From Octopus sinensis (taxonomy: Eukaryota), in assembly GCF_006345805.1 (NCBI RefSeq), contig NC_042999.1:4216001-4280000 (forward strand): a stretch of DNA of 64,000 nucleotides. Reading direction: 5' to 3'. A program made the translations under genes and the position numbers. Shown piece by piece: positions 1,288 through 64,000 of this stretch (the stretch's first letter is position 1; each line of letters starts with the position of its first letter). Below the pieces are notes generated by a model. That model was not told where the DNA came from. It made no database searches and saw only the letters and a list, made by a program, of their open reading frames with translations.

Positions 1288-1710
1288 GTAAGTATCTAGG
1301 TAAATATAGGCATAGCAACTAGGTGAATAGTTAAAAAGTATATTTACATCTGCTCACACTGGCTACAACTAAATGACATTGTTGAATAGTTAAACTCTTA
1401 TAGTATATGCCACATTTTTTTTTCCTAATGAAAAATTATGAATCTATGTCTTGTAAAAATATATGACACACATGCATTCAACTTAACTGTATACAACAAC
1501 TTTGTTGATGAAAAGATATGACAGCAGATAAAAATCAGTTAGAACAGGTGAAAACCACATTCACAATGTACACCAGTGATCATTTTATCTATCAGTAAAT
1601 TTCATCCTAGTGTATACAATGGTTATACGACTCTGTGTTTTATTGTCGATTAATAGCATTTTGTGAAAATCTAGTTTCTAACAGGTTTGAGTAATATTTA
1701 TAGAGAAAGT

Positions 1711-1885
1711 AAGGTGGCAAGGTCACTGAATTGTTAGCACACAGGACAAAATGTTTAGCAGTATTTTGTCCATCTGTATGTTCTGAGTTCAAATTCTGTC
1801 AAGTTCAACTTTGCTTTTCATCGTTTTAGGCTCAATAAAGTTAAGTACCAGTCGTGTACTGTGATCAGTGTAATCAACTACCCCT
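1711..1885 (+). mobile_element. Old tRNA-derived SINE with Meta-like central domain, 3' end replaced by (GATA)n
   Basis: B-box GAGTTCAAATTC followed by CAACTTTGCTTTTCATC...AAGTACCAG. Confidence 0.7.
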
Positions 1886-1886
<1 letters not shown>

Positions 1887-1936
<50 letters not shown>

Positions 1937-1953
1937 TAGATAGATAGATAGAT
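1887..1953. repeat. (GATA)n tract, left flank of LINE insertion
   Basis: Direct reading. Confidence 0.95.
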
Positions 1954-1954
1954 A

Positions 1955-2927
1955 TGTTTCTTTATTAGCCACACAGGGCTGCACACAGATAGAACAAATT
2001 ACAAGGTAGAGCTTTTCTTTTGAAGGTTTAAAAAAAAAAAAAAAAAAAAAAAAAAGGAAGGGGGAGTTTCGATCAAAAGGGATCGTAAAAGGAGAGAAAG
2101 AGGACAAAAAAAAAGGGGGGTTAAAAAAAAAAAAAAAAAAAAAGGGGGAGAGGAGAAAAAAAATTGATCAATAGGGATCGTTATCACAGAAATGTCAATA
2201 TGAAGTGTAAAGGGGAGGACAGGTGAGGTTTACCCGTGGAAAGAAAAGCCTACGGAAAAGACCACGGTAACCTCGGTCAATGAAGTCACATTTTATATTT
2301 CTTTTTTTTTTTTTTTTTTTTTGCAAATAAGCAACTCTCTGTTTTCGATTTCTGGGTTCATAGGACTATGCTCAAGGTGGCTTCGTCATTCATACGTGCC
2401 ATTCTTGCTACATTCACCCATCTTTTTTTAAAACATTCGCTAGACAAAACTTGCCTCTCTACTCTCACTTTCCTTTTCAAGTGGTACTTGAAGAAGTTGA
2501 TGAGAGATTGACCAGAGAGGAAAGTGTTTGTCTCCAATCCTTTCAGACGCGTCCACCAGATACATTCTTTCGCCATAGCCACAAGGATGATGAAAATAGC
2601 TCTTCCTTCCCGTTTGAAGGAAGGAGGCGTGACAATATTGACGATAGACTCAGCTGATAAACCGACTCGTCCCACACGTGACAGCAGTTGTTCGACATAA
2701 GCCCACAGGTCGGAAATTGTTGGACACTGAACGAGTGCGTGCAGAACGGTTTCGTCGCTCTGACCGCATCTCAGGCAGGTCGGCCCCGTGTTTCTCGAGC
2801 CGTGTCTGTAGAGCTTATCCCGAACGGGTAGCGCTTCTCGGTAGCACTGCCAGGCCAGGGATCTCTGGAAGTTGTCCATGGGCCCTGGCCCGAAAGTCGT
2901 CCCGAACAGGCGGGTCAGGTACTCCTC
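1955..2927 (-). mobile_element. 5'-truncated L1/Tx1-type LINE (ORF2 C-terminus plus 3' UTR) inserted in (GATA)n
   Basis: Intact zf-RVT-type motif, CpG-rich, U-rich 3' UTR ending CTAATAAAGAAACA, GATA repeats on both sides. Confidence 0.85.
2358..2927 (-). pseudogene. LINE ORF2 C-terminal fragment with zinc-binding (zf-RVT-like) domain
   Basis: LAWQCYREALPVRDKL...CLRCGQSDETVLHALVQCP...LW...IWWTR; frame is open up to the truncation point (EEYLTRLFGTTFGPGP precedes the Met). Confidence 0.85.
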
Positions 2928-3045
<118 letters not shown>

Positions 3046-4559: not shown

Positions 4560-5195
4560 CCCTGTCATTATGTCATATCAGATTCTAACTAGTATGTCAT
4601 CATGTCATATTAAACTGTTCATGGGATATCATGTTTTATTAAGCTGTCTGTGATATATCATGTCATATTAAACTGTCTACAGGATATCATGGTATAGCCT
4701 ACTTTTTGGTAGTATATCACATAATATCAAACTTTCTGTGGTATATCATGTCATATTTAACTGTTTGTGGTATGTTATACTCTGTAAAACTCTAGTATAC
4801 CATGTCATATCAAACTGTCTGTAGTATATCAATTAATATCAAACTGTCTGTTGTATATCATATCATTTTAAACTGTCTATGGCATATCATGTTATATTAA
4901 ATTGTAATATATATTATATAAACTGTTTATATATTTTATAAACAGTTCTATTAAATTGTCTGTCAGATATCATTATATTAAACTGTCTATGAGATATCAC
5001 ATAATATTAATGTATGTGGTATATTATATTATTATTCTGTTATATACCATATTATATAAACTGATTATATATTATATCAACAATTCTATTAAACTGTCTG
5101 TTGATATCAAGTTATATTAAAGTATCTATGGGATATCATTCTATATCAAACTGTCTGTGGTATGTCATGTTATATCAGACTGTGGTATATCATTT
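4560..5195. repeat. Degenerate ~29-bp minisatellite (consensus approx. TATATCATGTCATATTAAACTGTCTGTGG), roughly 20 units
   Basis: AAACTGTCT and TATCAT recur at about 29-bp spacing. Confidence 0.85.
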
Positions 5196-5234
5196 TAAGC
5201 ATATCTGGGCTATTTATTATTTGGTAAACTGAGA

Positions 5235-5362: not shown

Positions 5363-7255
5363 TAGGGTGTGACGTAAGAGAATTTATTTCTTTCCAGTGG
5401 GTTGATATACCACATTGAGTATCTTTCAGTGTAAGCTTTAGTAGTAGTGTGGTAGCAATATTTATGACAGCAATGAAGATGGCGATCATTTTGACAGCTA
5501 AAACAACAATAGTAACAGCATCAACATACATACAAAGGAAAGGGCGTAACGTAATAGAATAGCAATTTTACAATGAATGTATTACTCTTTAAAAATGAAC
5601 ACAAGCAACATATCTGTATTGCAATTTGAAAATGAGTACCTGAGGTTAGTACCTATAAATATAGGAGCAAATAATAAAGGGGTTGTTAGAAAGTGATATA
5701 ATGTCGAAGTCATCCTTAGTGAAATTAGTATATAAGTGATAATTATTTAAAACACACAGACTGAAAGTAGATAAAAATTGACAGGAAATAATATAAAGAG
5801 ACATGGCACTTCGAGAAAGATTAGAAGTTTAGAGATAAAGAGAGATGAAACTGCATATTATGTTTCAGATAGCCAAATTGCATATTAAACCTATTAAACA
5901 TTGATTTATTGTTGCACAGAAAGAGTGTAACATGAAGAAAATAACCATGCCAGTATCTGCAGTATTTAAAATAATATATCACAATAGAATTTTCGTATTA
6001 AAAGCTAATATTATATAAATTACAATAGCTGTTGTTTTTTGTTTCGTTTCTGATTTCTTTTTATTTATTTTTTTTGGTTTTTTTTTTTTGGTTTTTCTTT
6101 GTTTTTGTAATAGACAATAGCAAAACAGTAGTCAATGGTATATAAAATTAAATGGGACGAAGAGAGTTGAAAATATATCGACTTTTGATTTCAGCACTTA
6201 GACATTTAAGATATAGCATAATAAATTTATTGAAAAGCTAAACAAAGACCTCACATTAAAAAGAAATTTGTGTGTGTCTGTGTGTGTGTTTGTGTGTGTG
6301 TGCATGTGTGTTTGTGTGTGTGTGTGTTTGTGTGTGTGTGTATGTATATTACACACACACATATAACAATGCATTCTACAATCTTTTAACTGGTTCAAGT
6401 TGAGTGTGACCATGCTGAGGCATCACATTTATTTTGACAAAAAGGAAAATTTTGAATTTTCCATTTGCAAAAACGGCTAGATGTTCATTTCAAGGAACAG
6501 TTCTTTGAGAAATAGAGGAAGAAAATGTTCTGCTACAAGAAGAAAACTTTATAAGAATTCTAAATATGAAACTAAACTGGAAATCGTTGATACCACAATT
6601 AAAACAAATTCCTCTATACAGATTACCTTGTAACATGTGTATTTGAAAAGCTGTAAGCAGCAAAAGCACTTACACAATATAAAAACTCCTTTCCAAAAGA
6701 TATGTGTCATTCTTATTTTAAAGATCATCGTCCCAACTCTCTGTTAGGAAGTACAAGCACTTACATACACATGTACACACACAGCAGGAACTTCCATCTA
6801 CCAAATTCTGTCACAAAGCTACAGAAGACACTTGCCCAAGGTGCCATGCAGTGGGACTGAACCCAAGACTGTATGGCTGGGAATCAAGCTTCCTGATCAC
6901 ACAGCCATGCTCACACAAGATATTTTTTATATAATCAATAATTTTTAATTTAAGAAAATCTTTCTTCAAACATATATGTACACATATGCACAAACACGCA
7001 CAGAGGATGGGCTTCTTTCATTTTCCATCTACCAAATCTACTCAGTCTGAGGGCAAAGTAGAAGATACACAGTGTGATTAAACCTAAACCTATATGATTG
7101 GGAAGCAAATATATTAAGATTGCCAAACACCTACCCACATTTTCACACATACACACATCATGAACTTCTACAATTTCTGACTACTAAAAATATATATATA
7201 GAGAGAGGGCACTGTAAGCAGAATTGCATATTAGGGTAGAAATTGTAAGATTGAA

Positions 7256-7667
7256 TACTCTTTACTCTTTACTCTTTTACTTGTTTCAGTCATTTGACTG
7301 CGGCCATGCTGGAGCACCGCCTTTAATCGAGCAACTCGACCCTGGGACTTATTCTTTTGTAAGCCCAGTACTTATTCTATCGGTTTCTTTTGCCGAACTG
7401 CTAAGTAACGGGGACATAAACACACCAGCATAGGTTGTCAAGCAATGCTAGGGGGACAAACACAGACACACAAACACACACACGCATATATATATACATA
7501 TATACGACAGGCTTCTTTCAGTTTCCGTCTACCAAACCCACTCATAAGGCTTTGGTTGGCCCGAGGCTATAGTAGAAAACACTTGCCCAAGGTGCCACAC
7601 AGTGGGACTGAACCCGGAACCATGTGGTTGGTAAACAAGCTACTTACCACACAACCACTTCTGCGCC
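7256..7667 (-). mobile_element. Full-length young tRNA-derived CORE-type SINE, (GTAAAGA)n tail
   Basis: A box GTGGTTGTGTGG, B box GGTTCAGTCCC, CORE-like CCTTGGGCAAGTG, internal TA/TG tract; matches 20374, 28442, 48122, 51723. Confidence 0.9.
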
Positions 7668-8329
7668 TATTCACTAAAATATTCACTAAAGGTATCAATA
7701 AATTATCATTCTCAACATTGTCATCACTTTAATATCCACTTTTCCATGCTTAGTTATGTTGATATTGAAAATTTAATCCTTTGGAAAAAAAACCCATAGG
7801 TATCCCAATGGGCTTTGATTCCATTGGCATAGATTAGTTTGTCTATTTGTGAGAGGTAGCAAGGAGAGCTTTTGTATGGTGGCTCAACCTACTAGAATTA
7901 GAAGCTGCATCTTTCTCAACTCATACACTACAACATTAAGGACTAAAGAACACATTAACTAATATTTTAGTCCTAGATATATGCACTGCCTATGATTAAA
8001 AAGCAGGATTAATCATGGCTGAAACATGTTTGATCATAGATCATGGTTAAACAATAACTTGAACATTATTACATTTATCTCTGTAACTTAGTGGTTTGAC
8101 AAAAAGAGACCTGTAGAATAAGTAACAAGCTTTAAAAAAAATTAAGTACTAGGGTTGAGTTATTTAACTAAGATATTCTTCAAGGCAGTGCCCCAACATG
8201 GCTGCAGTTTACTGACTGAAACAAGTAAGAAATAGATCTCATAACATTAAATACAGAATTAGATTAAAATTTTTAATTAAACCCTCCCCTTCCCCCAATG
8301 ATTTGATGAGAATTCTAGATAGAAATGTG

Positions 8330-10438: not shown

Positions 10439-10600
10439 TATTTCTTTATTACCCACAAGGGGCTAAACACAGAGGGGACAAACAAGGACAGACATAGGTA
10501 TTAAGTCGATTATATCGACCCCAGTGCGTAACTGGTACTTAATTTATCGACCCCGAAAGGATGAAAGGCAAAGTCGACCTCGGCGGAATTCGAACTCACG
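10439..10600 (-). mobile_element. Young Meta-type SINE, 5'-truncated, Tx1-like tail
   Basis: GCCGAGGTCGACTTTGCCTTTCATCCTTTCGGGGTCGATAAATTAAGTACCAG body; tail TTTAGCCCCTTGTGGGTAATAAAGAAATA. Confidence 0.9.
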
Positions 10601-12760: not shown

Positions 12761-12799
<39 letters not shown>

Positions 12800-13150
12800 T
12801 CATCATCATCATCGTTTAACGTCCGCTTTCCATGCTAGCATGGGTTGGACAATTTTGACTGAGGGCTGGCAAACCAGATGGCTGCACCAGGCTCCAATCT
12901 TGATCTGGCAGAGTTTCTACAGCTGGATGCCCTTCCTAACACCAACCACTCATTACAAGTGTGTGTGTGTGTGTGTGTACTTGACAACTGGTGTCGGTGT
13001 GTTTACATTCCTGTGACTTAGTGGTTTGGCATAAAAAACCTTGCTTAAAAAAAGGTGCTGGGGGTCGATTCATTTGACTAAAATTCTTGAAGGAAGTGCC
13101 CCACGATGGCCACAGTCTAATGACTGAAACAAGTAAAAGAATAAAAGAAT
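12650..13150 (+). mobile_element. Older CORE-type SINE with an RTE 3' UTR fragment (12798-12952, minus) nested in its internal microsatellite
   Basis: CCTTGGGCAAGTG at ~12665, tail GACTGAAACAAGTAAAAGAATAAAAGA; nested (CAT)n-led fragment. Confidence 0.8.
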
Positions 13151-13710: not shown

Positions 13711-13772
13711 TGTTTCTTTACTACCCACAAGGGGCTAAACACAGAGGGGACAAACAAGGACAGACAGACGGA
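13711..13772 (-). mobile_element. Tail-only insertion of the young Meta-type SINE inside a (CAT)n tract
   Basis: Matches 10441-10495 and 43381-43440; (ATC)n on both sides. Confidence 0.85.
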
Positions 13773-15237: not shown

Positions 15238-15377
15238 TGGAGTAGCAATAGCATGTCATTGATGAGGTCATGAATGGTACCAAAAGGACTCTGACAAACT
15301 TAACTCATTGATTTCCCAAACAACTAATTAAACAATCATTTAGTTAATTGATTAAATAATTAACAATTTGACTAATA

Positions 15378-15613
15378 ATCCTTTCTACTTAGGCAAAGGG
15401 CTTGAAATTTTGTGGGATGGGACCAGTTGATTACATTGACCCCAGTGCACAACTAGTACTTATTTCATTGATCTAAAAAAAATGAAAGGCAAAGTTGACC
15501 CTAGATGCATTTGAACTCAGAACATAAATTTAGGCAAAATGCCACAAATTTGGGCAAAATTCCGCAAAGCACTTTGTCTAGCATGTTAATGATTTTTCCA
15601 GCTCATTGCCTTC
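15378..15613 (-). mobile_element. Old Meta-type SINE
   Basis: ATGAAAGGCAAAGTTGACC...TTTGAACTCAGAAC on the plus strand. Confidence 0.7.
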
Positions 15614-16187
15614 TAGTTAACTAATAATAACAGAGAAGTGAAATAGAACCAGTGCATATGGTTTTATTAGGATAATGACCCTCCGAAGATACAACAAAAT
15701 CTCTTTCAACACAATTTTACATCAAGAGACTTGCAAACGAAATACAAAAACACATGTTATCAATTATATTCAATATTACTGTTAATGCTATTAGTATTAG
15801 AAGTTATACACACACACAGACACACACCTACATGCATACATAAATTTATATCATTCTCACTTTTTACTTTCCACTCTTTCAGCATCAGCAATACTAACAA
15901 CAACAACAGCAATTAGCAAGTAATTATCTCATTTAAAATGCATTGACCATCTGTTTCTGTTTATTAGTTTATTAATTATAAACGTTGTTGTTGCCATCCT
16001 TTTAGAAAAGAATTCTTGACGTCTTCTTTGTCAAGCCACCTGATATCAAGACTTGATGGTTTAAACAATGGAAGGCCACGGGGACTTTCTATCAAGCAAG
16101 GGAATAATCTGTGGTTGGAGTGGGGTGAGGCATTAAATAATAAGATAATGATGATAGCTTTATCTATGTAGGAAAACAACGCACATA

Positions 16188-16586
16188 TCTTTATATATAA
16201 AAGTGAAGTTGTGTGTCTGTCTCCTATGATTTAGATTCCTAACTACTCCCACATTTTGCAGTGCAATTTAACCAAAACCAGGTATCTTATAGTCGTGATT
16301 CATATCGAGCCCTTCTGGGTATTAGTGCGCGTCTACGATGAGTCTACGATTTTAAAAAAAAATTTACCATCATTTTTTCCATTTTAATGCATTTTTTCGC
16401 TATTATATAAGGGAAGTAACTCTCTAAAAATGTCTACGATGAGTCAACGATTAAAAAAAAAAAATTACCATCATTTTTTTTCCATTTTTAATGCATTTTT
16501 TTGTTATTTTTTGGCTATAGCTCTCTAAAAATGCTTATATAGTTATTTCCCTTACAAACCCGAGCAATGCCGGGCGATACTGCTAG
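16188..16586 (+). mobile_element. Non-autonomous Helitron
   Basis: A|TC 5' end, subterminal GC hairpin CCCGAGCAATGCCGGG, CTAG|T 3' end, no TSD, internal ~100-bp duplication; near-identical copy at 60361-60762. Confidence 0.85.
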
Positions 16587-16742
16587 TTGATGATAAAAAC
16601 CAATCAATTGACAACGAAAATGTAGGTAAATATGCATTGGTGTTAATAACACAGAGAATATTCTTGGTGTTAGCAGAGATGATAAAAGAAGATGAGAAAA
16701 TGCTTTCTTTGAAGATTTCCCATGCTTACACCTGTAAAATAT

Positions 16743-20244: not shown

Positions 20245-20863
20245 TAACTCTTTTGTTACGATATTTCTGTTGAAATAATTTGCCTTACTTCCAATTAATT
20301 TTGGAAATAATGAAAAATGTCGTAAAATAACATTGTCATTATTACGCTGATGATGGGAATAAAAATTCACATAGGCGCAGGAGTGGCTGTGTGGTAAGTA
20401 GCTTGTTTAACAACCACATGGTTCCGGGTTCAGTCCCACTGTGTGGCACCTTGGGCAAGTATCTTCTACTATAGCCTTGAGCCAACCAAAGCTTTGTGAG
20501 TGGATTTGGTAGACGGAAACTGAAAGAAGCCCATCGTATATATATATATATATGCGTGTGTGTGTTTGTCCCCCTAGCATTGCTTGACAACTGATGCTGG
20601 TGTGTTTATGTCCCCGTTACTTAGCGGTTTGGCAAAAGAGACCGATAGAATAAGTACTGGGTTTACAAAAGAATAAGTCCCGGGGTCGAGTTGCTCGATT
20701 AAAGGCGGTGCTCCAGCATGGCCGCAGTCAAATGACTGAAACAAGTAAAAGAGTAAAAAGAGTATAGAATATTGATGAAAGGTTTTAATTTAGTTCACTT
20801 TAAAATGGAATTTGTATTTTAGAGGCAGGAGCAATCTCAGACAGGTTGGTATTAAATAGATTA
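20245..20863. mobile_element. piggyBac-like (TTAA) MITE interrupted by a SINE
   Basis: Both halves match 25204-25430 in reverse complement. Confidence 0.6.
20374..20764 (+). mobile_element. Full-length young CORE-type SINE
   Basis: GGCGCAGGAGTGGCTGTGTGG A box, GGTTCAGTCCC B box, (GTAAAAGA)n tail. Confidence 0.9.
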
Positions 20864-20959: not shown

Positions 20960-22019
20960 TGCTGTAATATCCTGGCGGCTCATTAGCAGTAGTAGATAAT
21001 TTCTGCTACATGGGGGACCAAATTAGTAGTGGGGAAGATGTACAGAGAGTGTGATAGCAAAATAACAAAAGAATGGAGGAACTTCAGAGAGCTGTTACAT
21101 CTGTTAGCCACAAAAGGTTTCTCTCCTTGAGTGAAAGGGAGATTATATGATGCATATGACAGTGAGAGGTGGGCTCTGAGTGCAGAGGACATGTGAAGGA
21201 ATGCGGTTAGTATACTCTGTTCGATGTGTAAAGTAAATGTACATTTTCAACAGAGTGGTAGTATTTTGAGAGAGAGGTTATGTATAAGAGGAATTAGATG
21301 CTGTATTCAAGAGAGAAGACTGCATTAAGGCGGTGAGCTGGCAGAAATGTTAGCACGCCGGGCGAAATGCGTAGCCGCATTTCGTCTGCCATTTCGTTCT
21401 GAGTTCAAATTCCACCGAGGTCGACTTTGCCTTTCATCCTTTCGGGGTCGATAAATTAAGTACCAGTTACAAACTGGGGTCGATATAATCGACTTAATCC
21501 GTTTGTCTGTCCTTGTTTGTCCCCTCTGTGTTTAGCCCCTTGTGGGTAGTAAAGAAATAGGTGCTGCTGACAGATCCATAAAAAAGTGATGCAGATCTCT
21601 CAAAGTAGAAGAAACACATGGAAATGGGTGGCCCAGGAAGATATCGGATGAAGTACTGAAGAATGGCCACAGGATGCTCAATCTGTCAGGTGAGATGACA
21701 AAGGACCAAGATACTTGGCAACCTGCTGTACTCAAGAGGACCCGTACTTCACAGCAGAAGTGTTAAGACCAGTCCCTCTGGTGGTGAAAAGCACTCATGG
21801 TAATTCCATGTAAAAGCACCATTGCAGTGCCCTGTAAAAGCACCTGTGTGGCGCCACATGAAAGCACTCAACACACTCTGTAAAATGATTGGTGTTAGGA
21901 AGGACAACCATGCCAAAACAGATTGGAGTCTGTTGTAGCGCCCCACCTTGCCAGCTCTGGCCAAACTGTCCAACCCATGCCATCGTGGACAATGGACGTT
22001 AAATGATGATGATGATGAT
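20960..22019 (+). mobile_element. Degenerate RTE LINE 3' end (ORF C-terminus plus 3' UTR), interrupted by a SINE
   Basis: VDNFCYMGDQISSG, WRNFRELLHLLATKGFSP*VKGRLYDA, RGIRCCIQERRLHW, GNGWPRKISDEVLK; then GTAAAAGCACC subrepeats and (GAT)n tail. Confidence 0.85.
21327..21559 (+). mobile_element. Full-length young Meta-type SINE with Tx1-like tail
   Basis: A-box-like GAGCTGGCAGAA, B box GAGTTCAAATTCC, Meta-like body; splits the host Trp codon T|GG. Confidence 0.9.
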
Positions 22020-23234
22020 GGAAGGACAACCATGCCAAAACAGATTGGAGTCTGTTGTAGCGCCCCAGCTTGCCAGCTCTGGCCAAACCATCCAACCCAT
22101 GCCATCATGGACAATGGATGTTAAATGATGATGATGATGATGATGGAAGGACAACCATGCCAAAACAGATTGGAGTCTGTTGTAGCGCCGCAGCTTGCCA
22201 GCTCTGGCCAAACCGTCCAACCCATGCCATCATGGACAATGGATGTTAAATGATGATGATGATGATGATGGAAGGACAACCATGCCAAAACAGATTGGAG
22301 TCTGTTGTAGCGCTCCAGCTTGCCAGCTCTGGCCAAACTGTCCAACCCATGCCATCATGGACAATGGATGTTAAATGATGATGATGATGATGGAAGGACA
22401 ACCATGCCAAAACAGATTGGAGTCTGTTGTAGCGCTCCAGCTTGACAGCTCTGGTCAAACTGTCCAACCCATGCCATCATGGACAATGGACGTTAATGAT
22501 GATGATGATGATGGAAGGACAACCATGCCAAAACAGATTGGAGTCTGTTGTAGCGCTCCAGCTTGCCAGCTCTGGTCAAACTGTCCAACCCATGCCATCA
22601 TGGACAATGGACGTTAAATGATGATGATGATGATGGAAGGACAACCATGCCAAAACAGATTGGAGTCTGTTGTAGCGCCCCAGCTTGCCAGCTCTGGCCA
22701 AACTGTCCAACCCATGCCATCATGGACAATGGATGTTAAATGATGATGATGATGATGATGGAAGGACAACCATGCCAAAACAGATTGGAGTCTGTTGTAG
22801 CGCTCCAGCTTGACAGCTCTGGTCAAACTGTCCAACCCATGCCATCATGGACAATGGACGTTAAATGATGATGATGATGATGGAAGGACACCATGCCAAA
22901 ACAGATTGGAGTCTGTTGTAGCGCCCCAGCTTGCCAGCTCTGGCCAAACTGTCCAACCATGCCATCATGGACAATGGATGTTAAATGATGATGATGATGA
23001 TGATGGAAGGACACCATGCCAAAACAAATTGGAGTCTGTTGTAGCGCCCCAGCTTGCCAGCTCTGGCCAAACTGTCCAACCCATGCCATCATGGACAATG
23101 GACGTTAAATGATGATGATGATGATGGAAGGACAACCATGCCAAAACAGATTGGAGTCTGTTGTAGCGCTCCAGCTTGACAGCTCTGGTCAAACCGTCCA
23201 ACCCATGCCATCATGGACAATGGACGTTAAATGA

Positions 23235-23253
<19 letters not shown>
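21898..23253 (+). repeat. Tandem array of 11 x 121-125 bp units derived from the RTE 3' terminus
   Basis: GGAAGGAC unit starts at 21898, 22020, 22145, 22270, 22392, 22513, 22635, 22760, 22882, 23005 and 23126; each unit ends in (GAT)n. Confidence 0.95.
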
Positions 23254-28424: not shown

Positions 28425-28441
28425 AAAAAGAAGTCAAGATA

Positions 28442-28849
28442 GGCGCAGGAGTGGCTGTGTGGTAAGTAGCTTGCTTACCAACCACATGGTTCCTGGTTCA
28501 GTCCCACTGCATGGCATCTTGGGCAAGTGTCTTCAGCTATAGCCCTGGGCCGACCAATGCCTTGTGAGTGGGTTTGGTAGACGGAAACTGAAAGAAGCCT
28601 CTCATATATATGTATATATATATGTGTGTGTATGTTTGTGTGTCTGCGTTTGTCCCTCTAGCATTGCTTGACAAACGATGCTGGTGTGTTTACATCCCCG
28701 TCACTTAGAGGTTCAGCAAAAAGAGACCGATATAATAAGTACTGGGCTTACAAAGAATAAGTCCTGGGTCGATTTGCTCGACTAAAGGTGGTGCTCCAGC
28801 ATGGCCGCAGTCAAATGACTGAAACAAGTAAAAGAGAGAAAAGAGAGTA
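28442..28849 (+). mobile_element. Full-length young CORE-type SINE
   Basis: Colinear with 20374-20764. Confidence 0.9.
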
Positions 28850-29549
28850 ATAGAAAATGCTAAATTTTTTTAAAAACATTTCAGTACCGCTAAATATTTT
28901 AGCATTTTCTATCTTGACTTTTTATTCCATATGTATCAACTCGTGTGTTCCTTTTCATCCTTATACACACACACACACACATATATATATATAACCATCA
29001 TTTAACATCCCCTTTAGCATGCTGCCATATGTTGAATGGTTCAGTCTGAACAGATAAGTCTGAGGCCTGTGCCAAGTTCTAATGTCCACTTTGGCATAGT
29101 TTCTTCAGCTGCAGGGTCTCCCTAATGCTAATCTCTTTACATAGTTTACTTGATGCACCAGCCTGGTGTGTTCACCAAGTACCTTCAAAACAACCACACA
29201 ACTGTGTGAGGCATAAAATTGTGGGATAGGAAACTGCGATAGAGGAACAAGAGCAGGTAAGCAACTTGCTGAAATGACAGGTGTGTATGTTTTAATGTGT
29301 GTGAGTGTTAATTTTGCAAGTTTACCTTGTCACCACCTGACTAAAACAGTACTGTGATGTTTGCATTCCTTAGTGATATCACAGTTGGTTGCGCAAGGCT
29401 CTGAAAGATGTAGAATAGAAAACAAACCCTTAACATTAACCAGACCTCAGAGTTGGCCACAGGGAAATCTTGCCTTGAATAGATTCCTATCCAACCCTTG
29501 TTTCAATAGAAAAGCAAATGTTAAATGATCAAGCAAATGAATATATAAA

Positions 29550-41551: not shown

Positions 41552-41952
41552 TGGCTGTGTGGTAAGTAGCTTGCTAACCAACCACATGGTTCTGGGTTCA
41601 GTCCCACTGCGTGGCATCTTGGGCAAGTGTCTTCTGCTATAGCCCCGGGCCGACCAATGCCTTGTGAGTGGATTTGGTAGACGGAAACTGAAAGAAGCCT
41701 GTCGTATATATGTATATATATATATGTATGTGTGTGTGTTTGTGTGTCTGTGTTTGTTCCCCTAGCATTGCTTGACAACCGATGCTGGTGTGTTTACGTC
41801 CCCGTCACTTAGCGGTTTGGCAAAAAGAGACCGATAGAATAAGTACTTTGCTTACAAAAAGATAAGTCCCGGGGTCGAGTTGCTCGACTAAAGGCGGTGC
41901 TCCAGCATGGCCGCAGTCAAATGACTGAAACAAGTAAAAGAGTAAAAGAGTA
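41552..41952 (+). mobile_element. Near full-length young CORE-type SINE
   Basis: Colinear with 20374-20764. Confidence 0.9.
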
Positions 41953-42364
41953 ACTTATTTTCTAGTATTGATATAAATTTATTAAGAATGGTTTATCCTT
42001 TATGTTGGAAATCTATATGGTCATCTATGCCAGAGGAGAGCGGTTTCTTTCAAATTGATGTAATATTTTCATTGATTGATTAAATGGAGCCACTCGAAAC
42101 AGCTGTAATGTATTGATACCTGCACATCCTTGTTACTTATTTACATTCTGTTCACCTAACTTGGAGCTGTGCAGACTATACCAAACTGACTTGGTGCCTC
42201 AATTTAAGTGCCTAATTCAACTGAATCTTAATTATAAAAAGCCTCATGATAGCAAAGGCTGCACCTGCCTACCTTGGTTGCTATGGCATTGAGGTAGATC
42301 CGGTCACCCCCATTAACAGGGGCAAAACCTGAATTTAAAACACTTGATGATGATGATATATATA

Positions 42365-43216: not shown

Positions 43217-43660
43217 AATCCGATTATAGGCACAAAGACTGAAGTTTTAAGGGAAGAGGCTAGTTGATTACATTGACTCCAATGCCCAACTCATATCTAT
43301 TTCATTGGCCTGAAACAATAAGAGGCAAAGTAGACCTCAGTGGAATTTGAACTCAGAATGTAAATATGGATAAAATACCTATTTCTTTATTACCCAAAAA
43401 GGGCTAAACACAGAGAGGACAAACAAGGACAGACAAACGGATTAAGTCGATTATATCGACCCCAGTGCATAACTGGTACTTATTTAATCGACCCCGAAAG
43501 GATGAAAGGCAAAGTCGACCTCGGCGGAATTTGAACTGAGAATGTAACGGCAGACGAAATACGACTACGCATTTTGCCCGGCATGCTAACGATTCTGCCA
43601 GTGGATAAAATACCACTAAGCATTTTGTTCAGTGTGCTAATAATTCTGCCAGCTCACTAA
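43217..43660 (-). mobile_element. Old Meta-type SINE hosting a young copy of the same family
   Basis: Tail and body 43217-43379, head 43602-43660. Confidence 0.75.
43380..43601 (-). mobile_element. Young Meta-type SINE with Tx1-like tail
   Basis: 13-bp TSD TGGATAAAATACC at 43367-43379 and 43602-43614. Confidence 0.92.
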
Positions 43661-45826: not shown

Positions 45827-45934
45827 CTATACACATATATACATATATACACACACATGCAATTTCAGTAAGTGTATTCATTAAAATGCATGCTCATGGC
45901 TATATTGACTTTTAGGGTACTAAAATTTTGTAAT

Positions 45935-46476
45935 GAATAATAATAATAGTTTCAAATTTTGGCACAAGGCCAGCAATTTTGGGTAACCCCTATGCTCAAC
46001 TGATACTTGTTTTATTGACCCTGAAAGTATGAAAGGCAAGGTCAAACTTGGCAGAATTTGAACTCAGAACATAAAGACAGATGAAGTGCCGCTAAGCATT
46101 TTAGCCAGCATGCTAGAGATTCTGCCAGCTCACTAACTTGCCATAATAATAATAATAATGGTTTCGGATTTTGGCACAAGGCCAGCAATTTTAGAGAAAG
46201 GCTTACATTCATTACTCCGTCCCCAATGCTAAACTGGTATTTATTTTATCAAACCTGAGAGGGTGGAAGGCAAAATCAACCACAGCATAATTTGAGCTCA
46301 GAATGTAAAGAGCCAGAAGAAATGCCATGAAGCGCTTTGTCTGACACACTTATAATTCTCACCATTTTACTAATACCACTGTTACTACTACTACTAATAA
46401 TAATAATAGTAATAAAACTTATTGTTGGGAAGACACTCAGCAAGAAATGGAAACAAAATTGAAAGAAGAAAAACTG

Positions 46477-46525
<49 letters not shown>

Positions 46526-46700
46526 GGTGGTGAGCTGGCAGAATTGTTTGCATGCTGGCCAAAATGCTTAGCAGTATTTCAGCCATTGTTATGTTCTGAG
46601 TTGAAATTCTGCTGAGGTTGACTTTGCCATTCATCCTTTCAAGGTCGATAAATTATGTACCAGTGAAACACTGGGGTTGATGTAATCAACTAGTCCCCTC
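45935..46700. mobile_element. Cluster of three old Meta-type SINEs (two minus, one plus) separated by (AAT)n/(TTA)n
   Basis: Copies at ~45945-46143 (-), ~46157-46365 (-) and ~46523-46700 (+). Confidence 0.75.
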
Positions 46701-46748
46701 TAGTGTGTGTGTGTGTGTGTGTGCACGCGCGCATGTATGTATGCATAT

Positions 46749-47020: not shown

Positions 47021-48121
47021 ATGTGTCATGGTGTTTATGTTTACCCAGCACCACTTGACAAGTGGGGCTGGTTCATTTGCATTCCCCAACTTAGCAGATT
47101 GGCAAAAGAGATCTTTAGAATAAATACCAAACTTAAAATAACTACTGGAGTTGAGTGGTTTGAAGAGAATCATAAAAAGCAATGCTGCAGCATAGCTGCT
47201 CTCCAATGACTGAAACAAGTAAAAGAGTATTTTACATCAAAGGAGAAATTAGCTCAATTGTTCACTGCTGTATTATCTCTTTGTAGTGAGATTATTTAAC
47301 ACATTTATAGATCACATGACAATCACCCAGGATTACAGAAACAAAAAAAAAATGTTGATGTTTTCTCTAGTAGTCATTTATCTATTTGTTTCAACTTACC
47401 AGAAATAGCATTTATACTTTTATCTATAGGTTTGCTATTTCCTCTGTTCAATAATATATACTAATAAAAACAATATAAAAATCTACCAGTTGTGTCGTAT
47501 TGATTTCTTTCTACTTAGTCTTACCCCCCAAAAACCATGTTCTCTAAACTCATCTTGCTTCAGTTATCAATAGCCATCACTCCAACCTGTGCCTCACTAA
47601 TTTAGTATTGTCTCTTTCCATACATAAAGTCTAGAATATTTTACATTGTACCTATTTCAGAAATAGAACTTGAAACAAGACAAGGAAGAAAAGAGGAATA
47701 TTCTCAAGTTATTGTTCTTGTTTGACATCATTTGATCACTTATTGAAAATGAACTTTGTTCTTTATTTCTTTGATATTCTTTTAGTGAGTATCTTGTCAA
47801 ACAAGCAACTTAATGTCAACAGAAAAATTTAGCCCAGTGAGGCGCTGAGATTTTTAGGCTGAACACATATACATACATACATGCATACATACATATATAC
47901 ATACATACACATGTATGTATGTATATATACATATACATATATCTATACATGTATACACACACACACACACACACACACAGATGAGCACATAAGTGCAAAA
48001 TAACGTGGTAAAAATAGTACTCGAATACCAAAAGTAGAGTAATATCCTTTAATTAGAGCTGCAAAATTATCACAAAAACTCTTTTTGTGATAAGTTTGCA
48101 GCTTTAATAAAAGTATATATA

Positions 48122-48286
48122 GGTGCAGGAGTGGCTGTGTGGTAAGTAGCTTGCTTACAAACCACATGGTTCCAGGTTCAGTCTCACTGCGTGACATCTT
48201 GGGCAAGTGTCTTCTGCTATAGCCCTGGGCCGACCAAAGCCTTGTGAGTGGATTTGGCAGACGGAAACTGAAAGAAGCCTGTCGTA

Positions 48287-48329
<43 letters not shown>

Positions 48330-48540
48330 TGTGTGTCTGTGTTTGTCCCCCTAGCATTGCTTGACAACCGATGCTGGTGTGTTTAGGTCTCCGTCACTTA
48401 GCGATTCGGCAAAAGAGACCGATAGAATAAGTACTGGGCTTACAAAGAATAAGTCCCGGGGTCGATTTGGTCGACTAAAGGCGGTGCTCCAACATGGCCG
48501 CAGTCAAAATGACTGAAACAAATAAAGGAGTAAAGGAGTA
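48122..48540 (+). mobile_element. Full-length young CORE-type SINE
   Basis: Colinear with 20374-20764. Confidence 0.9.
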
Positions 48541-48854
48541 TATAAAAGTACAAACACATCCTCATTTTAATGTCTACATTTCCATGTTTACATAGATATA
48601 AATGTGGATACTAAAATGAGGAAGACATATCTTTTCATCTTACTTTCCTTCATCCCCTACCCACATTCATTACATCCACTTCTACTTTCTCTCCCCTCTC
48701 AGTTATAGGGGCCACATTAGGTCCCTTAACCTTGCAACTTATGAGACAAACATCACTAGTGCTAGTGTCACAAAAAATGCACCCAGTACACTTTGTAAAA
48801 GCGGTTATTGTTAGGAAAGGCATCTAGCTGTAGAAACCATGTCAAAGTAGACAT

Positions 48855-51275: not shown

Positions 51276-51722
51276 ACTTATATACAAACATGTTGTTGAA
51301 TAATTAAGTGATTGTAATCAGCCTTCATCAAGTTTCTCTTATCGTAATTCTCAATTAAAATTTATTGCTCTGTCCATTTCTTTAAAGCTATTCACTCCCA
51401 TAAAGGAATTCTTTAAAAAACAAAAATACTCTCCTTTCCTTTAATTTCCAGATGTAATCAACAATCTCTTACTTCTTCATATCTGGATATGAAGCAATTG
51501 TATTATTTTAAATATAAATATAAACTATTTTTATAAAAGTGTTTAATCAGTTTGATATGCATTTTAAAAATTTATCTTGAATAAGCTTGGCTTGAATTCT
51601 GTAATTCAAAATTTTATTAATCGTTTTTATTAATTTGAAAGGTAAATTATCTTAGATATGAGAACTTTACTTGTATGAAACAATGAAGCATTGGAGGGTA
51701 TATGTTTTAATTAAATATACCA

Positions 51723-51887
51723 GGCGCAGGAGTGGCTTTGTGGTAAGTAGCTTGCTTACCAACCACATGGTTCCGGGTTCAGTCCCACTGCGTGGCATCT
51801 TGGGCAAGTGTCTTCTGCTATAGCCCCGGGCCAACCAATGCCTTGTGAGTGGATTTGGTAGACAGAAACTGAAAGAAGCCTGACGTA

Positions 51888-51936
<49 letters not shown>

Positions 51937-52149
51937 ATATGTTTGTGTGTGTGTTTGTTCCCCTAGCATTGCTTGACAACCGATGCTGGTGTGTTTACGT
52001 CCCCGTCACTTAGCGGTTCAGCAAAAGAGACCGATAGGATAAGTACTGGGCTTACAAAGAATAAGTCCCGGGGTTGATTTGCTCGACTAAAGGCGGTGCT
52101 CCAGCATGGTCGCAGTCAAATGACTGAAACAAGTAAAAGAGTAAAAGAG
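51723..52149 (+). mobile_element. Full-length young CORE-type SINE
   Basis: TSD TATACCA at 51716-51722 and 52150-52156. Confidence 0.92.
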
Positions 52150-52727
52150 TATACCAATATCATTAACAGGGAGTAGGGGAATATTTACTTGAATACTGTT
52201 TATGAGTAAAATTTAATCATCATATTTTAATAGGTTCTAGTAATATATTAAAGGCACTAAAACTTATCTGCCTCGGTTTGTAGTTAACAAGTTTGCTTCC
52301 AAACTACATGGTTTCAGGTTCAATCCCACTGCATGGCACCTTGAGCAAGCGTCTTCAACTATAACCTTGGGTTATAGCTTTGTGAAGAAATTTGTTGTAC
52401 ACATGCGTGTGTGTGGTTATGTGCAACCTTGTCTTGACAGCATTCAGATGTAGTAAAATCTACTTCAACAAATTCTCTTTTACCTATGTAAGCATAAAAA
52501 AAGTGGATGTTAAATAGTGGAAATGGCAAGGGTGGTGGTTTGCTTGCAACTGGGATGGGGAAATGGATAAGATGAAAGAAAAGGAAAAAAAGGGCAGCCA
52601 ATTATTTTATTTGGGTAGTATTTCATTCATTTATGCTACTAATGATCTTAGAGGTATCTTATGAACATTACATCATCTCATTCTTCTTACTCAATAAATG
52701 TGACTTTGTACCTAAGTAAAAAATAAA

Positions 52728-52912
52728 TATTGGTCTCAAATTTTGGCACAAGGCCAGCAATTTCGGGGGTGGAGAAGTAAGTGAATTAAATCAACCCAGT
52801 GCTCAACCAATACTTATTTTATCAACTCCAAAAGGATGAAAGAGAAAGTTGATATCAGTGGAATTTGAACTTCAGAGCATGAAGACAGACGAAATGCAGC
52901 TAAGCATTTTTC
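52728..52912 (-). mobile_element. Old Meta-type SINE with alternative tail
   Basis: CAAATTTTGGCACAAGGCCAGCAATTT..GGATGAAAG..GAATTTGAACT. Confidence 0.7.
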
Positions 52913-53810: not shown

Positions 53811-55067
53811 GATACATACTATTAGAAAATAAATAGATAGACAGATAGATAGATATATGGTGCAGGGAGGCAAAAATTTATTTCTGCAACAAACAGCGGA
53901 TAAATAATAGAAGCATATTTAGCAATAGATTAGAAATCTTACAGGATAATATTTTTCTTTATTCATTAAAGTTCCTTTCTGATAAATTCTAGCAGACTCG
54001 AGTTCCAAGATTCATTCTTGTTTTGACTGATTTAGTTGCTGTGAAAATAACAATGTTGGGCTGCTGCCTTTCAAATTAGGTTTCTGTTATTTTTAATCTG
54101 TATTTGTCGAATTCTGTTTACTCTTATCTCTTATCTCAATTACATTTCGTGTTGTACTATAGAGATACAGATACAGTTATATTCTTGTAAAAGATATAGC
54201 AATTAATTCTTAATGAGATTATGGTTTAGAAATACTCCTGTGACAATAATGGGGCTATTTGTTTGATTCAATTTAGTTATCTTCATAGAATGTGGTTGCA
54301 TTTATTAAATTTTAAGGACAGATTCAGACCAAATTTACTTTAGTAAATTCTAACACTTTTAAAATTGTATTAATTCCATCTAAAGAAGTTAGCGAGGTGT
54401 TATCATCACTCATTTTAAATTATTCTACTGATGTGTGCAGATATTGCAATTTGGTTAAGTGACAAGAAGTGTAGGTACAAAGAAGCAGCTCTCAGATATA
54501 TTTACCTCAGTTAATACATTACTATTGATGTTGTTGATTAACCCTAAATTAATTCTTATTGAGCAGAACTATGATCAAAGGTGTTTATGATCACCCTGTT
54601 TCTTTGTACATCTATAACTGCACTGTCCAATGCATCCCACCTTTTTTAAGATGCTAGGGCTTAATTTGAGATAAATTGGTTGCTACTTCTAGCAGTTTAA
54701 GCAACCATATAAAGATTGCTGCAGTTTGTAATTTTATGTAGTTTTCATTATTACCATATATTAGAACTCTTTACACTCAGAGTTCAAATTCTGCTGATCT
54801 CAACTTTGTCTTTCATCCTTTCAAAGTTGATAAAATAAGTACCAGTTGAACACTGGGGTTGATTTAATTTACTAAGCCTCTACCCCAAAACGCTGGCATT
54901 TTGCCAAAATTTGAAACCACTAATACTTCATTATTTTCCTAACCTGGTATCTTAAATGGCTAGATCCATAGAAACCATTGAAACTTTTGAGAATAGTATT
55001 CTAGCAAAGCCCTAACTTTTGGTTTGGCTAACACAAACCAAAGGACTAAAGTAATTTAATATAGGAA

Positions 55068-56778: not shown

Positions 56779-56808
<30 letters not shown>

Positions 56809-57190
56809 TTAGCGTCCGCTTTCCATGCTAGCATGGGTTGGACGGTTCAACTGGGGTCTGTGAAGTCAGAAGGCTGCATCAGGCCCAGTCTGATCTGGCA
56901 GTGTTTCTATGGCTGGATGCCCTTCCTAACGCCAACCACTCCGTGAGTGTAGTGGGTGCTTTTTACGTGCCACCCGCACAGGTGCCAGACGGAGCTGGCA
57001 AACGGCCACAAATGGATGGTGCTTTTACATGCCACCGGCACGGGGTCCAGGCGAGGCTGGCAACGGACACGAACGGATGGTGCTTTTACCGGCACGAGGC
57101 CAGTCGGGGCGGCGCTGGCAACGGTCATGAATGGATGGTTCTCTTACGTGCCACTGGCACTGGTAACCCAGCTGCAATTTCCATTGATTG
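56779..57190 (-). mobile_element. Young RTE 3' UTR fragment with ~50-bp internal subrepeats
   Basis: Near-identical to 26157-26512. Confidence 0.85.
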
Positions 57191-59665: not shown

Positions 59666-60360
59666 TTAACTGCATTGACTGATTCATAAATTGTTCCATT
59701 TACTAGCATACCATTATCAAGTAAAATAACCATAACCTGTTGTTTAGTTAAACCTTCATCTTACACTTACTATTTTTCATTTGGAAAATATAATTAAGGT
59801 TTTAAAAAATAAAAAATGCTCTGAATACAAAATTAAGAAGGTTAGGTTGTCTTATAAACATGAATGTGTATTTCAATAACCTCTAGATGCATTGAGGTGA
59901 TATTTAATTATTACAAAATGCCTATATTGAAATTAGATGTAAAATATAAAAGCTCTTTCCTCTTAACTCATTTGTCATTGTATTTAGTCAAACCAGACCC
60001 AACCACCACTGACAACATAACATTTGTTCTTTTCTTGATGAAATTTTTTATTTCTGTATATAGTGGTATGCTTAACAATGCCTCCAGCAAGCTAAGATCT
60101 TTATTCTCTCTCAGTCATATATTTCAAAATATAAGCTATATAATCGCAGCAAATATATTTCAATATATGTTTAGAAGGATTAAGTCTTAAATTATATTAT
60201 TGAACACATAGCATGAATATATACACACGCACACATACACATACACACACGTACCTATGTGTGTGACATGTAGGTTTTAGGTGAAATCATAAATAAAACC
60301 AATCAAATATTAACTGAAAGAATACCCAATATACTTAAGTAGATTATCGTTTATTTAATA

Positions 60361-60762
60361 CTAGCAGTATCGCCTGGCGTTGCTCGGGTTTGTAAGGGAA
60401 ATAACTATATAAGCATTTTTAGAGAGTTATAGCCCAAAAATAGCAAAACAATGCACTAAAAATGGAAAAAAAATGATGGTAAATTTTTTTTTAAATCGTT
60501 GACTCATCGTAGACATTTTTAGAGAGTTACTTCCCTTATATAATAGCGAAAAAATGCATTAAAATGGAAAAAAAATTATGGTAATTTTTTTTTAAATCGT
60601 AGACTCATCGTAGATGCGCACTAATACCCAGAAGGGCTCGATATGAATCACGACTATAAGATACCCGCTTTTGGTTAAACTGCACCGCAAAATGTGGGAG
60701 TAGTTAGGAATCTAAATCATAGGAGACAGACACTCACACAACTTGACTTTTACATATAAAGA
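60361..60762 (-). mobile_element. Non-autonomous Helitron
   Basis: Reverse complement of 16188-16586; A|TC and CTAG|T ends. Confidence 0.88.
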
Positions 60763-60894
60763 TATTTAAGTTGTCAAATTATTTTTACAAGAAAAAGGTT
60801 GACCCTGAGTTTAAGATTTTGATGGACAATCTGCTGAATCTAATCATTGGCAAAATTCTGAAATTCTAGTTTATTTTTTCCCTTCTAAATATAT

Positions 60895-61280
60895 ATTCTT
60901 TTATTCTTTTACTTGTTTCAGTCATCTGAGTGTAGCCATGCTGGAGCCCCACCGTGAATGGTTTTAGTCAAACAAATCACCCCATGACTTCTTTTTTAAG
61001 ACTAGTATTTATTCTATCGGTCTCTTTAGCTGAACTGCTGAGTTGCAGAGATGTAAACACACCAACACCAGTTGTCAAGCAATGATGGAGGGGGACAAAC
61101 ACACAGACACATGCACACACACACACACACACACACACAGATATATATGACAGGATTCTTTCAGTTTCCATCTACCAAATCCACTCACAAATTTTTGGTC
61201 AACCCAAGGCAAAGACACTTGCCCAAGATGCCACACAATGGGATTGAACCCAGAACCATGTGGTTGAGAAGCAAGCTTCT
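60895..61280 (-). mobile_element. Older CORE-type SINE
   Basis: CTTTTACTTGTTTCAGTCA tail and GACACTTGCCCAAGATGCCAC head. Confidence 0.8.
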
Positions 61281-61600
61281 TTATTTCTTTCAAATTGCCA
61301 TAAAGGCATTACACAGAGGGGGACACTACAACACATATGGGAACATATAATAATTAAAATATGATGCTATTGTAAGTAGCTTTATGAGACCTGCCTAAAA
61401 GTACACTAAAGTAGTAAAATGTCAGACATCTTTGGTTAGTAGGCTAATGCCAGAACTACATAAACATTGTTATTTCATAACCATTTAAAAGACCCAGCCT
61501 GGGAGCATTTGTGTGGTCATTCAACATTTTAGAAATAGCAACCTAATTCTCTTAAAATCAGGCTTTACCCTCTAATAACAGGAAGGAAATATTAAACAAT

Positions 61601-62942: not shown

Positions 62943-62998
62943 TATTTCTTTACTACCCACAAGGGGCTAAACACAGAGGGGACAAACAAGGAAAGACA
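62943..62998 (-). mobile_element. Tail-only insertion of the young Meta-type SINE
   Basis: TATTTCTTTACTACCCACAAGGGGCTAAACACAGAGGGGACAAACAAGG. Confidence 0.85.
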
Positions 62999-64000
62999 TG
63001 AAGATAATGCACTTTTAAGTCAGTTTGGTCATTAAATCATCATCAATAGTACACAATATTGGGTATTTTGCATGTGAAGGTGAGAATAACGATACTAATA
63101 TTTACATAAGTTTCCATGTTTTTTATTACCTGGAACATTTGCATTTCTATATGTACAACAACAACAACTATTTGAATAAAGCAGCATACATGGAACAGTA
63201 AATGTGATAGTTAAAAGTCTTCATAGTATAAAATATTTTAGTTATATGAAAATTGTTCATGATTATCAAAGACAAAGTAGAAATAGTGAGAACATCTTAT
63301 CACTAAAATGACAAATAGAGTTCTGTGTAACACCTGAGGTTGTTCTGTTGGGGAGTTTAAGATCCAGCTTTTATAATATTGAGTCAAAACTTCTAGAACC
63401 TTTATCAGAACTATTTGGTTGGAGATTTCACAAAAATTGGGTTCAAGTATACTGCTGTTTGGTTACCCACCAGCTAATCTGATTGGCTGAATCATGTTCT
63501 CATAGGTATTTATACATTTATGATGACAGTTAATTTCTCATAACTGGTCTAACTTTTTATGGCAATACAGTTAGGCTGTGGTCCCAAACTGAAGAATCTG
63601 AGCAAAATGGCTTGAAACTTGGCAGAAACCTCACTACATTTCCAACTAAAATTATCTGCAGCCAAATATTCTTTAAAATCTCACACAATGGCAATCTCTC
63701 CACTTCTAGAACTGTAAAAATATTTGTGACTATGGAACTACAATCATATATCTAGATCTTGTGTCAAAACTAGACATAAATTTCTTATCTCTCATGACTT
63801 GCTGCCATGGCATATGTGCCAAAATTCTAAACACAGCAAAAAGAAATTCCCTACTGGCAGGAGACCAAAGTGTATAGACTGAGAATTCATCGAGTTCAGA
63901 ATAATGAGGAGAGGAAAAGTTAAGAGTAAATATGAATAATGACAAAAAAAAAAAAAAAGACATTAACACATTTTGCTAAATATCAAGCTTTGAATTAAAT

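Follow-up and report, generated by a model that had tools for sequence, protein, structure and literature searches.

The locus and its retroelements

The stretch analysed here, referred to as the window, comprises 64,000 nucleotides of Octopus sinensis DNA (NCBI RefSeq assembly GCF_006345805.1, contig NC_042999.1, positions 4,216,001 to 4,280,000 of the forward strand), and it contains a 5'-truncated long interspersed element (LINE) of the Tx1 group together with young and old copies of a short interspersed element (SINE) whose young tail resembles the terminus of that LINE. The SINE is about 232 nt long, with a 60-nt tail homologous to the ends of octopod target-specific Tx1-type LINEs, and judging from sequence it is probably copied in trans by the product of open reading frame 2 (ORF2) of such a LINE, though probably not by that of the young (TATC)n-inserting family seen in the window. 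The elements concerned are the following, in window coordinates.

1955 to 2928, minus strand: 5'-truncated Tx1-group LINE, designated family A, with about 970 nt left of the 6.1 kb of the complete element
2358 to 2927, minus strand: last 189 codons and stop of ORF2, with the zf-RVT zinc-binding domain (PF13966, E 1.4e-8)
1955 to 2010, minus strand: LINE 3' terminal segment common to the SINE (pyrimidine-rich block, stem of 4 bp with a 6-nt loop, AATAAA-like word)
1886 to 1954, minus strand: (TATC)n repeat, the insertion target, adjoining the 3' end of the LINE; the same repeat follows 89 of 96 family-A tails
2929 to 3012, minus strand: (TATC)n target repeat on the other side, where the LINE is truncated 5'
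1710 to 1885, plus strand: older diverged copy that shares the head and body of the SINE and stops at the repeat hit by the LINE
21326 to 21559, plus strand: full-length young-tail SINE, with the Tx1-type tail at about 21498-21559
10439 to 10600, minus strand: 5'-truncated young-tail SINE, the copy aligned in the earlier note on this DNA
43380 to 43601, minus strand: near-full young-tail SINE that has inserted into a copy of this SINE bearing the old tail, flanked by a target-site duplication of 13-14 bp
13711 to 13772, minus strand: SINE piece reduced to the tail, lying within the (GAT)n end of another SINE
62943 to 62999, minus strand: tail-only SINE piece
46521 to 46703, plus strand: older SINE copy without the Tx1-type tail
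near 15373-15543, 45930-46133, 52716-52910 and 54768-54935: further older SINE copies without the Tx1-type tail

The LINE in the window has a 3' untranslated region (UTR) of 400 nt and is flanked by (TATC)n at both ends. The tail that it shares with the SINE is the true LINE terminus and not a separate SINE fragment, the case that the earlier note had named as a refutation: all ten long family-A copies that were fetched terminate in it, as do 30 of the 30 best DNA matches to the LINE, one of them with a small deletion. The length from repeat to tail is about 6.1 kb in six of the ten long copies. Family A is both young (99-100% identity in 150 of 150 scored protein matches) and abundant (8,019 exact genome matches to a 24-base tail pattern); its youngest copies diverge from the majority sequence by 0.2-0.8% and older ones by up to 6.3%, in LINE divergence samples that, for families A, B, E and G alike, are biased to best hits. 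The family-A ORF2 product of 1145 amino acids carries endonuclease (PF03372), reverse transcriptase (RT; PF00078) and zinc finger (PF13966) domains. For ORF1, a Pfam search with a 498-amino-acid part of the family-A protein returned no match, and the protein of the related family B matched zf-CCHC at an E-value of 0.093, below the cut-off. Family-A copies are often clustered, with one inserted into the (TATC)n flank of another.

The shared 3' terminus

The earlier note, made from the sequence alone, had aligned the LINE end at 1957-1998 with the SINE end at 10441 and counted 34 identities in 42 positions without gaps, and exactly this count was recovered. The other four SINE copies match the LINE end at 35/42 at 43382 and 33/42 at 13713, 62945 and 21557, the last on the opposite strand. 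All five SINE tails that the note had named thus match, although those at 13711 and 62943 are only pieces of about 60 nt, 5'-truncated to the tail. Its SINE coordinates were shifted by 2 nt, the SINE having two additional bases (TA) at its end, and it quoted the plus strand, whereas the sense strand is the minus strand for the LINE and for four of the five SINE copies.

Elsewhere in the window, no further match to 1957-1998 reaches 26/42; the chance expectation of matches as close as those to the SINE ends is 1.2e-8 within the window, and 200 shuffled queries gave best window matches of only 22-27/42. With one 3-nt gap allowed, the match between the tails grows to 39 identities in 50 columns. 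The two ends are in register to the base and, in the sense direction, both elements present the same order of a pyrimidine-rich block, a short stem-loop, an AATAAA-like word, two more bases and then target DNA. When a full-length family-A copy is compared with the SINE, the match is confined to the last 44 nt (E 2.7e-5). The resemblance of the tails is therefore real and far above chance.

Clade placement and sister families

The earlier note had assigned the LINE to the L1/Tx1 type, and protein comparisons agree: in phmmer searches the octopod ORF2 scored 334 bits to Xenopus Tx1, 182 bits to human L1 and 75 bits to R2, against a reference score of 263 bits for Tx1 itself versus L1. The nearest named relative of the family-A protein is an Argonauta protein at 65-68%, and look-ups in the ESM Atlas and of clusters gave no clade names for the LINE proteins. 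In an RT tree of 40 rows, in which two distant genomic fragments serve as the outgroup to 38 chosen homologs and octopod copies, the octopod elements form their own clade (support 100/99) within a group (88/88) that includes vertebrate Tx1, lying outside the 100/100 clade of the latter; the reference rows exclude true L1, CR1, L2 and RTE, so that the tree leaves Tx1 versus L1 unsettled. These comparisons support an ORF2 that probably belongs to the L1 group and whose score to Xenopus Tx1 exceeds that to human L1. Target specificity, a hallmark of Tx1, is strong in octopod families A, B and E.

Sister families of A were found with divergent queries and in a 600-kb random sample. Family F likewise inserts in (TATC)n and is 75% identical to A in the ORF2 C-terminus, while family B (70% identical) inserts in (ATT)n, a simple ATT-type repeat coming next in 36 of 36 tails. 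Family E (55% identical), of which a 6,048-bp copy with a 12-bp duplication lies on C3 near 60.0 Mb, sits in 22 of 22 tails at a single position within the head of another SINE, which is about 420 bp long; E is thus a LINE that targets a SINE. This second SINE is abundant in the window.

7254-7670, 20371-20773, 28431-28857, 41552-41953, 48103-48547, 51706-52153 and 60890-61281: copies of the SINE of about 420 bp whose head is the family-E target

Family G inserts in (TC)n, and families H and D are old and lie in ATC/ATT-type (ATC/TTC-type) repeats, the membership of G, H and D in the group being based on short, weak ORF2-end matches only. Divergence is 2.8% in family E, 1.6% in G and 0.4% in B. 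Together these families form a radiation of related LINEs, most of them in a microsatellite of their own, with intact ORF2 copies in A and B.

When the last 65 nt of the SINE are compared with the LINE ends, z-scores from base shuffles are 17 for A, 10 for F, 5 for B, 13 for E, 11 for G and 10 for H, whereas the remainder of the SINE matches none of the LINE UTRs (z of -1.1 to 1.2). Some of these LINE families, compared with one another, give only low scores (A-E 1.1, A-G 2.4, F-E -1.0, F-G 0.0). Dinucleotide shuffles agree for A, F and E, and B is weaker. It might be argued that the likeness reflects chance or convergence of a pyrimidine-rich stretch beside a polyadenylation-like word, as the tail is of low complexity and AATAAA is common; this explanation is extremely improbable, being largely refuted by the absence of any dinucleotide shuffle reaching the observed score for A, F or E (0/500), the coincidence of the ends to the base and the match to six families.

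A stem of the form CC-loop-GG lies just 5' of the AATAAA-like word in the SINE and in six of seven LINE families (all but D), and its third pair covaries, being G-C in A, B, E, F and H, A-T in G and C-G in the SINE, in a comparison of one or two copies per family with stems of 3-6 bp. A minor SINE variant, in which a one-base change yields the family-A stem, often occurs together with one SINE subfamily, as if it had been propagated.

The SINE and its successive tails

The SINE is present in at least 93,000 copies (93,398 exact genome matches to a 25-base tail pattern), some of them 5'-truncated, and it ends without poly(A) or a microsatellite. Its head gave no Rfam tRNA match and no ARAGORN hit; the segments at 21339-21349 and 21403-21413 are presumably A-box-like and B-box-like, respectively, judged against consensus motifs, and the body may resemble the 66-bp Meta domain of MetaSINE. 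Ohshima and Okada reportedly described in 1994 the tRNA-derived octopus SINEs OK, OR1 and OR2, and the present element may be one of these.

Older copies share the head and body of the young ones, are more diverged and end in other tails, from which it follows that the tail was swapped: the SINE is a tail-swapping element whose older tail gave way to the Tx1-type tail, and the swap coincides with a large, younger burst of the SINE. In a random sample of 34 copies, divergence ranges from 1.3 to 8.2%, with a median of 4.3%. At least two older tails, carried by the copies near 15373-15543, 45930-46133, 52716-52910 and 54768-54935, have the same 5-base loop with the stem arms reversed, followed by (ATT)n. 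As to direction, transfer from LINE to SINE is indicated by the fact that this type of tail spans LINE families that are 55-75% identical in the ORF2 C-terminus, as well as by the other tails of the older SINE copies.

Target-site duplications and multimers

Duplications of the target start directly after the last two bases (TA) of the SINE. They were detected in 46 of 132 full-length copies, as against 16 of 655 shuffled-pair controls, in a set that includes copies picked for a flanking repeat; with the repeat-selected copies excluded, they were found in 50 of 108 elements with unique flanks (control, 1/746). Their length is mostly 15-19 bp, with a mode of 16-17 bp, which fits the L1/Tx1 group; the LINEs themselves gave 12 bp for family E and 15 bp for family A (one copy each). 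The duplications begin with GGT, AGA, GAT or TAT, and the starting word is tied to the SINE subfamily (16 AGA and 0 GGT in one, 3 AGA and 101 GGT in the other; p 3e-17).

Multimers are common, in which units of 184 bp are connected at one or two constant internal positions. Among those with unique flanks, 15 of 32 lie inside a single duplication (control, 1/746) and were therefore inserted in one event, so that self-insertion of the SINE is rejected as the origin of the 184-bp arrays, although single insertions into old copies do occur (window 43380). The multimers reach 2-5 units and may reflect template jumping or multimeric source genes.

The search for a donor and the competing explanations

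The earlier note had suspected a sister LINE family as the true donor of the tail, and the comparison of tails fits this suggestion. Family A comes closest to the 3' half of the SINE tail, with 36/42 identities in an older A copy, whereas the 5' half is most like families E (28/31) and G and has no counterpart in A; the last bases of the SINE and family G are identical. The SINE tail thus looks like that of an ancestral or unsampled member of the group, or like a chimera. The divergence of the SINE (median 4.3%) overlaps that of family E (2.8%) and of the older A copies (up to 6.3%).

Family A of the window is probably not the donor, as the match is better in older relatives, the SINE looks older than the youngest A copies and the two elements insert at different sites. 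It is nonetheless conceivable, if rather unlikely, that older subfamilies of A are the mobiliser and that sites differ since the last bases of the RNA, and not the endonuclease alone, choose them. An older A copy provides the best single match to the last 42 nt of the SINE (36/42), the family is abundant and includes copies that have diverged by up to 6.3%, the bases that follow the SINE tail depend on the subfamily (16 AGA/0 GGT versus 3 AGA/101 GGT), multimers with unique flanks lie within one duplication (15/32) and a minor SINE variant bears the A-type stem. Set against this, A does not possess the upstream half of the SINE tail that is present in E and G, none of 32 random SINE tails lies in (TATC)n in the A orientation, so that the SINE and A do not share insertion sites, and no random SINE copy (0/34) is within 1% of the majority, whereas the youngest A copies, in their biased sample, are at about 0.2%. 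The data support pairing of the SINE with the wider group of Tx1-type LINEs, and do not support pairing with family A of the window.

Several results weigh against the pairing with the Tx1 group. The exact SINE tail follows none of 257 LINE ORF2-end hits, which are partly redundant; an exact-tail LINE was not found, the closest LINE tail reaching only 36/42; and three patterns excluding the bases upstream of the tail in the SINE gave 90 loci (30/68, 30/140 and 30/43) that are all SINE variants or truncations. Only three A-type tails precede a SINE-like site, as against 8,019 A-type tails. Family D has no stem and no significant match to the young SINE tail, the folding energy of the tails is no better than that of shuffles (z of +0.4 to -1.2), a stem of 3-4 bp is weak evidence and the pyrimidine-rich tail is able to inflate z-scores. 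As the folding energies are not significant, the case for structure is carried by the conserved pattern. The RT tree, finally, includes no true L1 row, and the octopod clade stands beside and not inside vertebrate Tx1.

Other searches for a donor point the same way. Among 296 classified tails, 286 have the SINE body upstream, and the other ten comprise truncated pieces together with one inverted SINE junction and a single end of family A; in this set the tail occurs on elements of no other kind. When the tail is followed by (TAGA)n, 21 of 22 loci have the SINE body and one is truncated, with no LINE; a LINE-type stem at the SINE site GGTATTT revealed no LINE in 30 of 39 hits; and 46 hits to a tail pattern with a shorter spacer resemble SINE deletion variants, as judged without flanks. 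Three protein queries from other lineages recovered only families B, A/F and B. The sequence read amounts to about 2 Mb of the 2.7-Gb genome, in which a rare or differently flanked donor may be missed.

The lack of a matching partner can be counted in favour of another explanation, that the tail is a passenger acquired in a one-off template switch from Tx1 RNA, while movement of the SINE depends on a different LINE clade or an enzyme of relaxed recognition. RTE, CR1, Dong-R4 and L1-Tx1 families are all given as recently active in an octopus repeat survey (PMC13282606, Table 1), and the loop may not be Tx1-specific, since a comparable 5-nt loop, on a reversed stem, occurs in one of the earlier tails of this SINE. 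A passenger tail would nevertheless sit poorly with the coincidence of the tail swap and a large younger burst, with the existence of 60-nt insertions consisting of the tail only, with a duplication length that fits the L1 group and with a SINE end that has neither poly(A) nor a microsatellite, and we consider it very unlikely.

Proposed mechanism

Under the reading in which the SINE depends on a Tx1-group enzyme, an older SINE would have gained roughly the terminal 60 nt of an RNA of the Tx1 group through template switching. The SINE would be transcribed by Pol III, and a Tx1-group ORF2 protein would bind the small stem-loop and the AATAAA-like word of its RNA, nick the DNA and reverse-transcribe from the nick (target-primed reverse transcription). 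Mobilisation by such an enzyme, with stringent recognition of the tail, is what we infer from the rule established for L2, CR1 and RTE pairs (PMC3747384). Less firmly, the last few bases of the RNA may pair with the nicked target. Such pairing is suggested by the link between subfamily and target and by the fixed multimer junction at an internal site equal to the commonest target word; it would explain why the SINE subfamilies prefer different sites of 3-4 bases and why the 184-bp multimers are joined at a single site. A change of partner over time would explain the link between subfamily and target equally well, and if pairing is real, a mismatch of targets does not exclude the A lineage.

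A bolder proposal, possible though on balance doubtful, is that the octopus SINE is the first in animals to have a tail derived from Tx1, that the octopod Tx1 radiation is stringent via a tiny stem-loop and not poly(A), and that the insertion site is chosen in part by the final bases of the RNA. If so, one type of enzyme would reach (TATC)n, (ATT)n, (TC)n, a SINE head or G(G/A)TA depending on the RNA end.

Other repeats in the window

A tandem array of about 11 copies of a unit of about 122-125 bp, 95% alike, occupies 21898-23251 and is related to part of another SINE (12796-12910 and 56789-56900). A degenerate AT-rich tandem repeat lies at 4590-5197, and a 410-bp repeat pair at 16176-16587 and 60360-60774 is inverted, 93% alike and contains an internal 100-bp duplication.

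Significance and comparison with known systems

The pairing would name the likely engine of a major octopus SINE burst, and the close LINE relatives with different targets constitute a natural series on the contributions of endonuclease and RNA end to site choice. For the question of whether the ancestral state of the L1 group was a stringent or a relaxed choice of RNA, a test on new L1 lineages was proposed by Ohshima (PMC3747384), and a conserved non-poly(A) Tx1 tail, a 93,000-copy SINE and intact ORF2 copies offer direct material for it.

The sharing of tails is ordinary, and it is a Tx1-group tail on an animal SINE that appears to be undescribed in the searchable literature. No such animal SINE was found in the literature searched, to which subscription journals, Repbase, Dfam and SINEBase did not belong, and a prior database description is quite possible. 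The earlier note had regarded the pairing as poorly documented, which holds for animals and Tx1 tails but not for L1-clade pairs in plants and algae, nor for the crocodilian SINEU (PMC3747384, PMC4494074). Among the 58 SINE-LINE pairs listed in Table 1 of PMC3747384, the L1-tail SINEs are only ZmSINE2 and ZmSINE3 with LINE1-1_ZM of maize and SINEX-3_CR with L1-1_CR of Chlamydomonas (PMC3472496, PMC3747384), none of them Tx1 or animal. These pairs have a short conserved shared 3' end, a hairpin and compensatory changes, and belong to plant and algal L1 lineages.

For molluscs, superfamily SINEs (MetaSINE, CORE, V and Ceph) swap tails and, like the octopus SINE, combine one head and body with several successive tails (PMC4824008, PMC11481361, PMC5786205). 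Their reported partners are CR1, CR1-Zenon, L2, Nimb or RTE, those of bivalve SINEs being CR1, CR1-Zenon, L2 and Nimb (PMC11481361, PMC4824008); Tx1 is unnamed as a partner in the available parts of these papers, and the word is absent from that of the Repbase-wide SINE-LINE comparison (PMC5786205). The octopus repeat survey counts 13 L1-Tx1 families as recently active and leaves 893 SINE families unclassified, and its available part does not use the word partner (PMC13282606).

The closest parallels lie within Tx1 itself. Kibi and Koshi, described in PMC4494074, are microsatellite-specific Tx1 elements with endonuclease and RT, and octopod family G resembles Kibi in its (TC)n target. The octopod families differ from both in forming their own clade (100/99) outside vertebrate Tx1 and in a range of targets that includes (TATC)n, (ATT)n and a SINE head. 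In crocodilians, Tx1 families likewise target microsatellites and other transposons, and SINEU with Tx1-Mar provides, as in octopus, a SINE thought to be moved by a target-specific Tx1, there on the grounds of shared targets and with no LINE found that shares its 3' end (Kojima 2015; PMC4494074). SINEU has small nuclear RNA heads, poly(A) tails and targets in common with its LINE, whereas the octopus SINE has a shared non-poly(A) tail and different targets.
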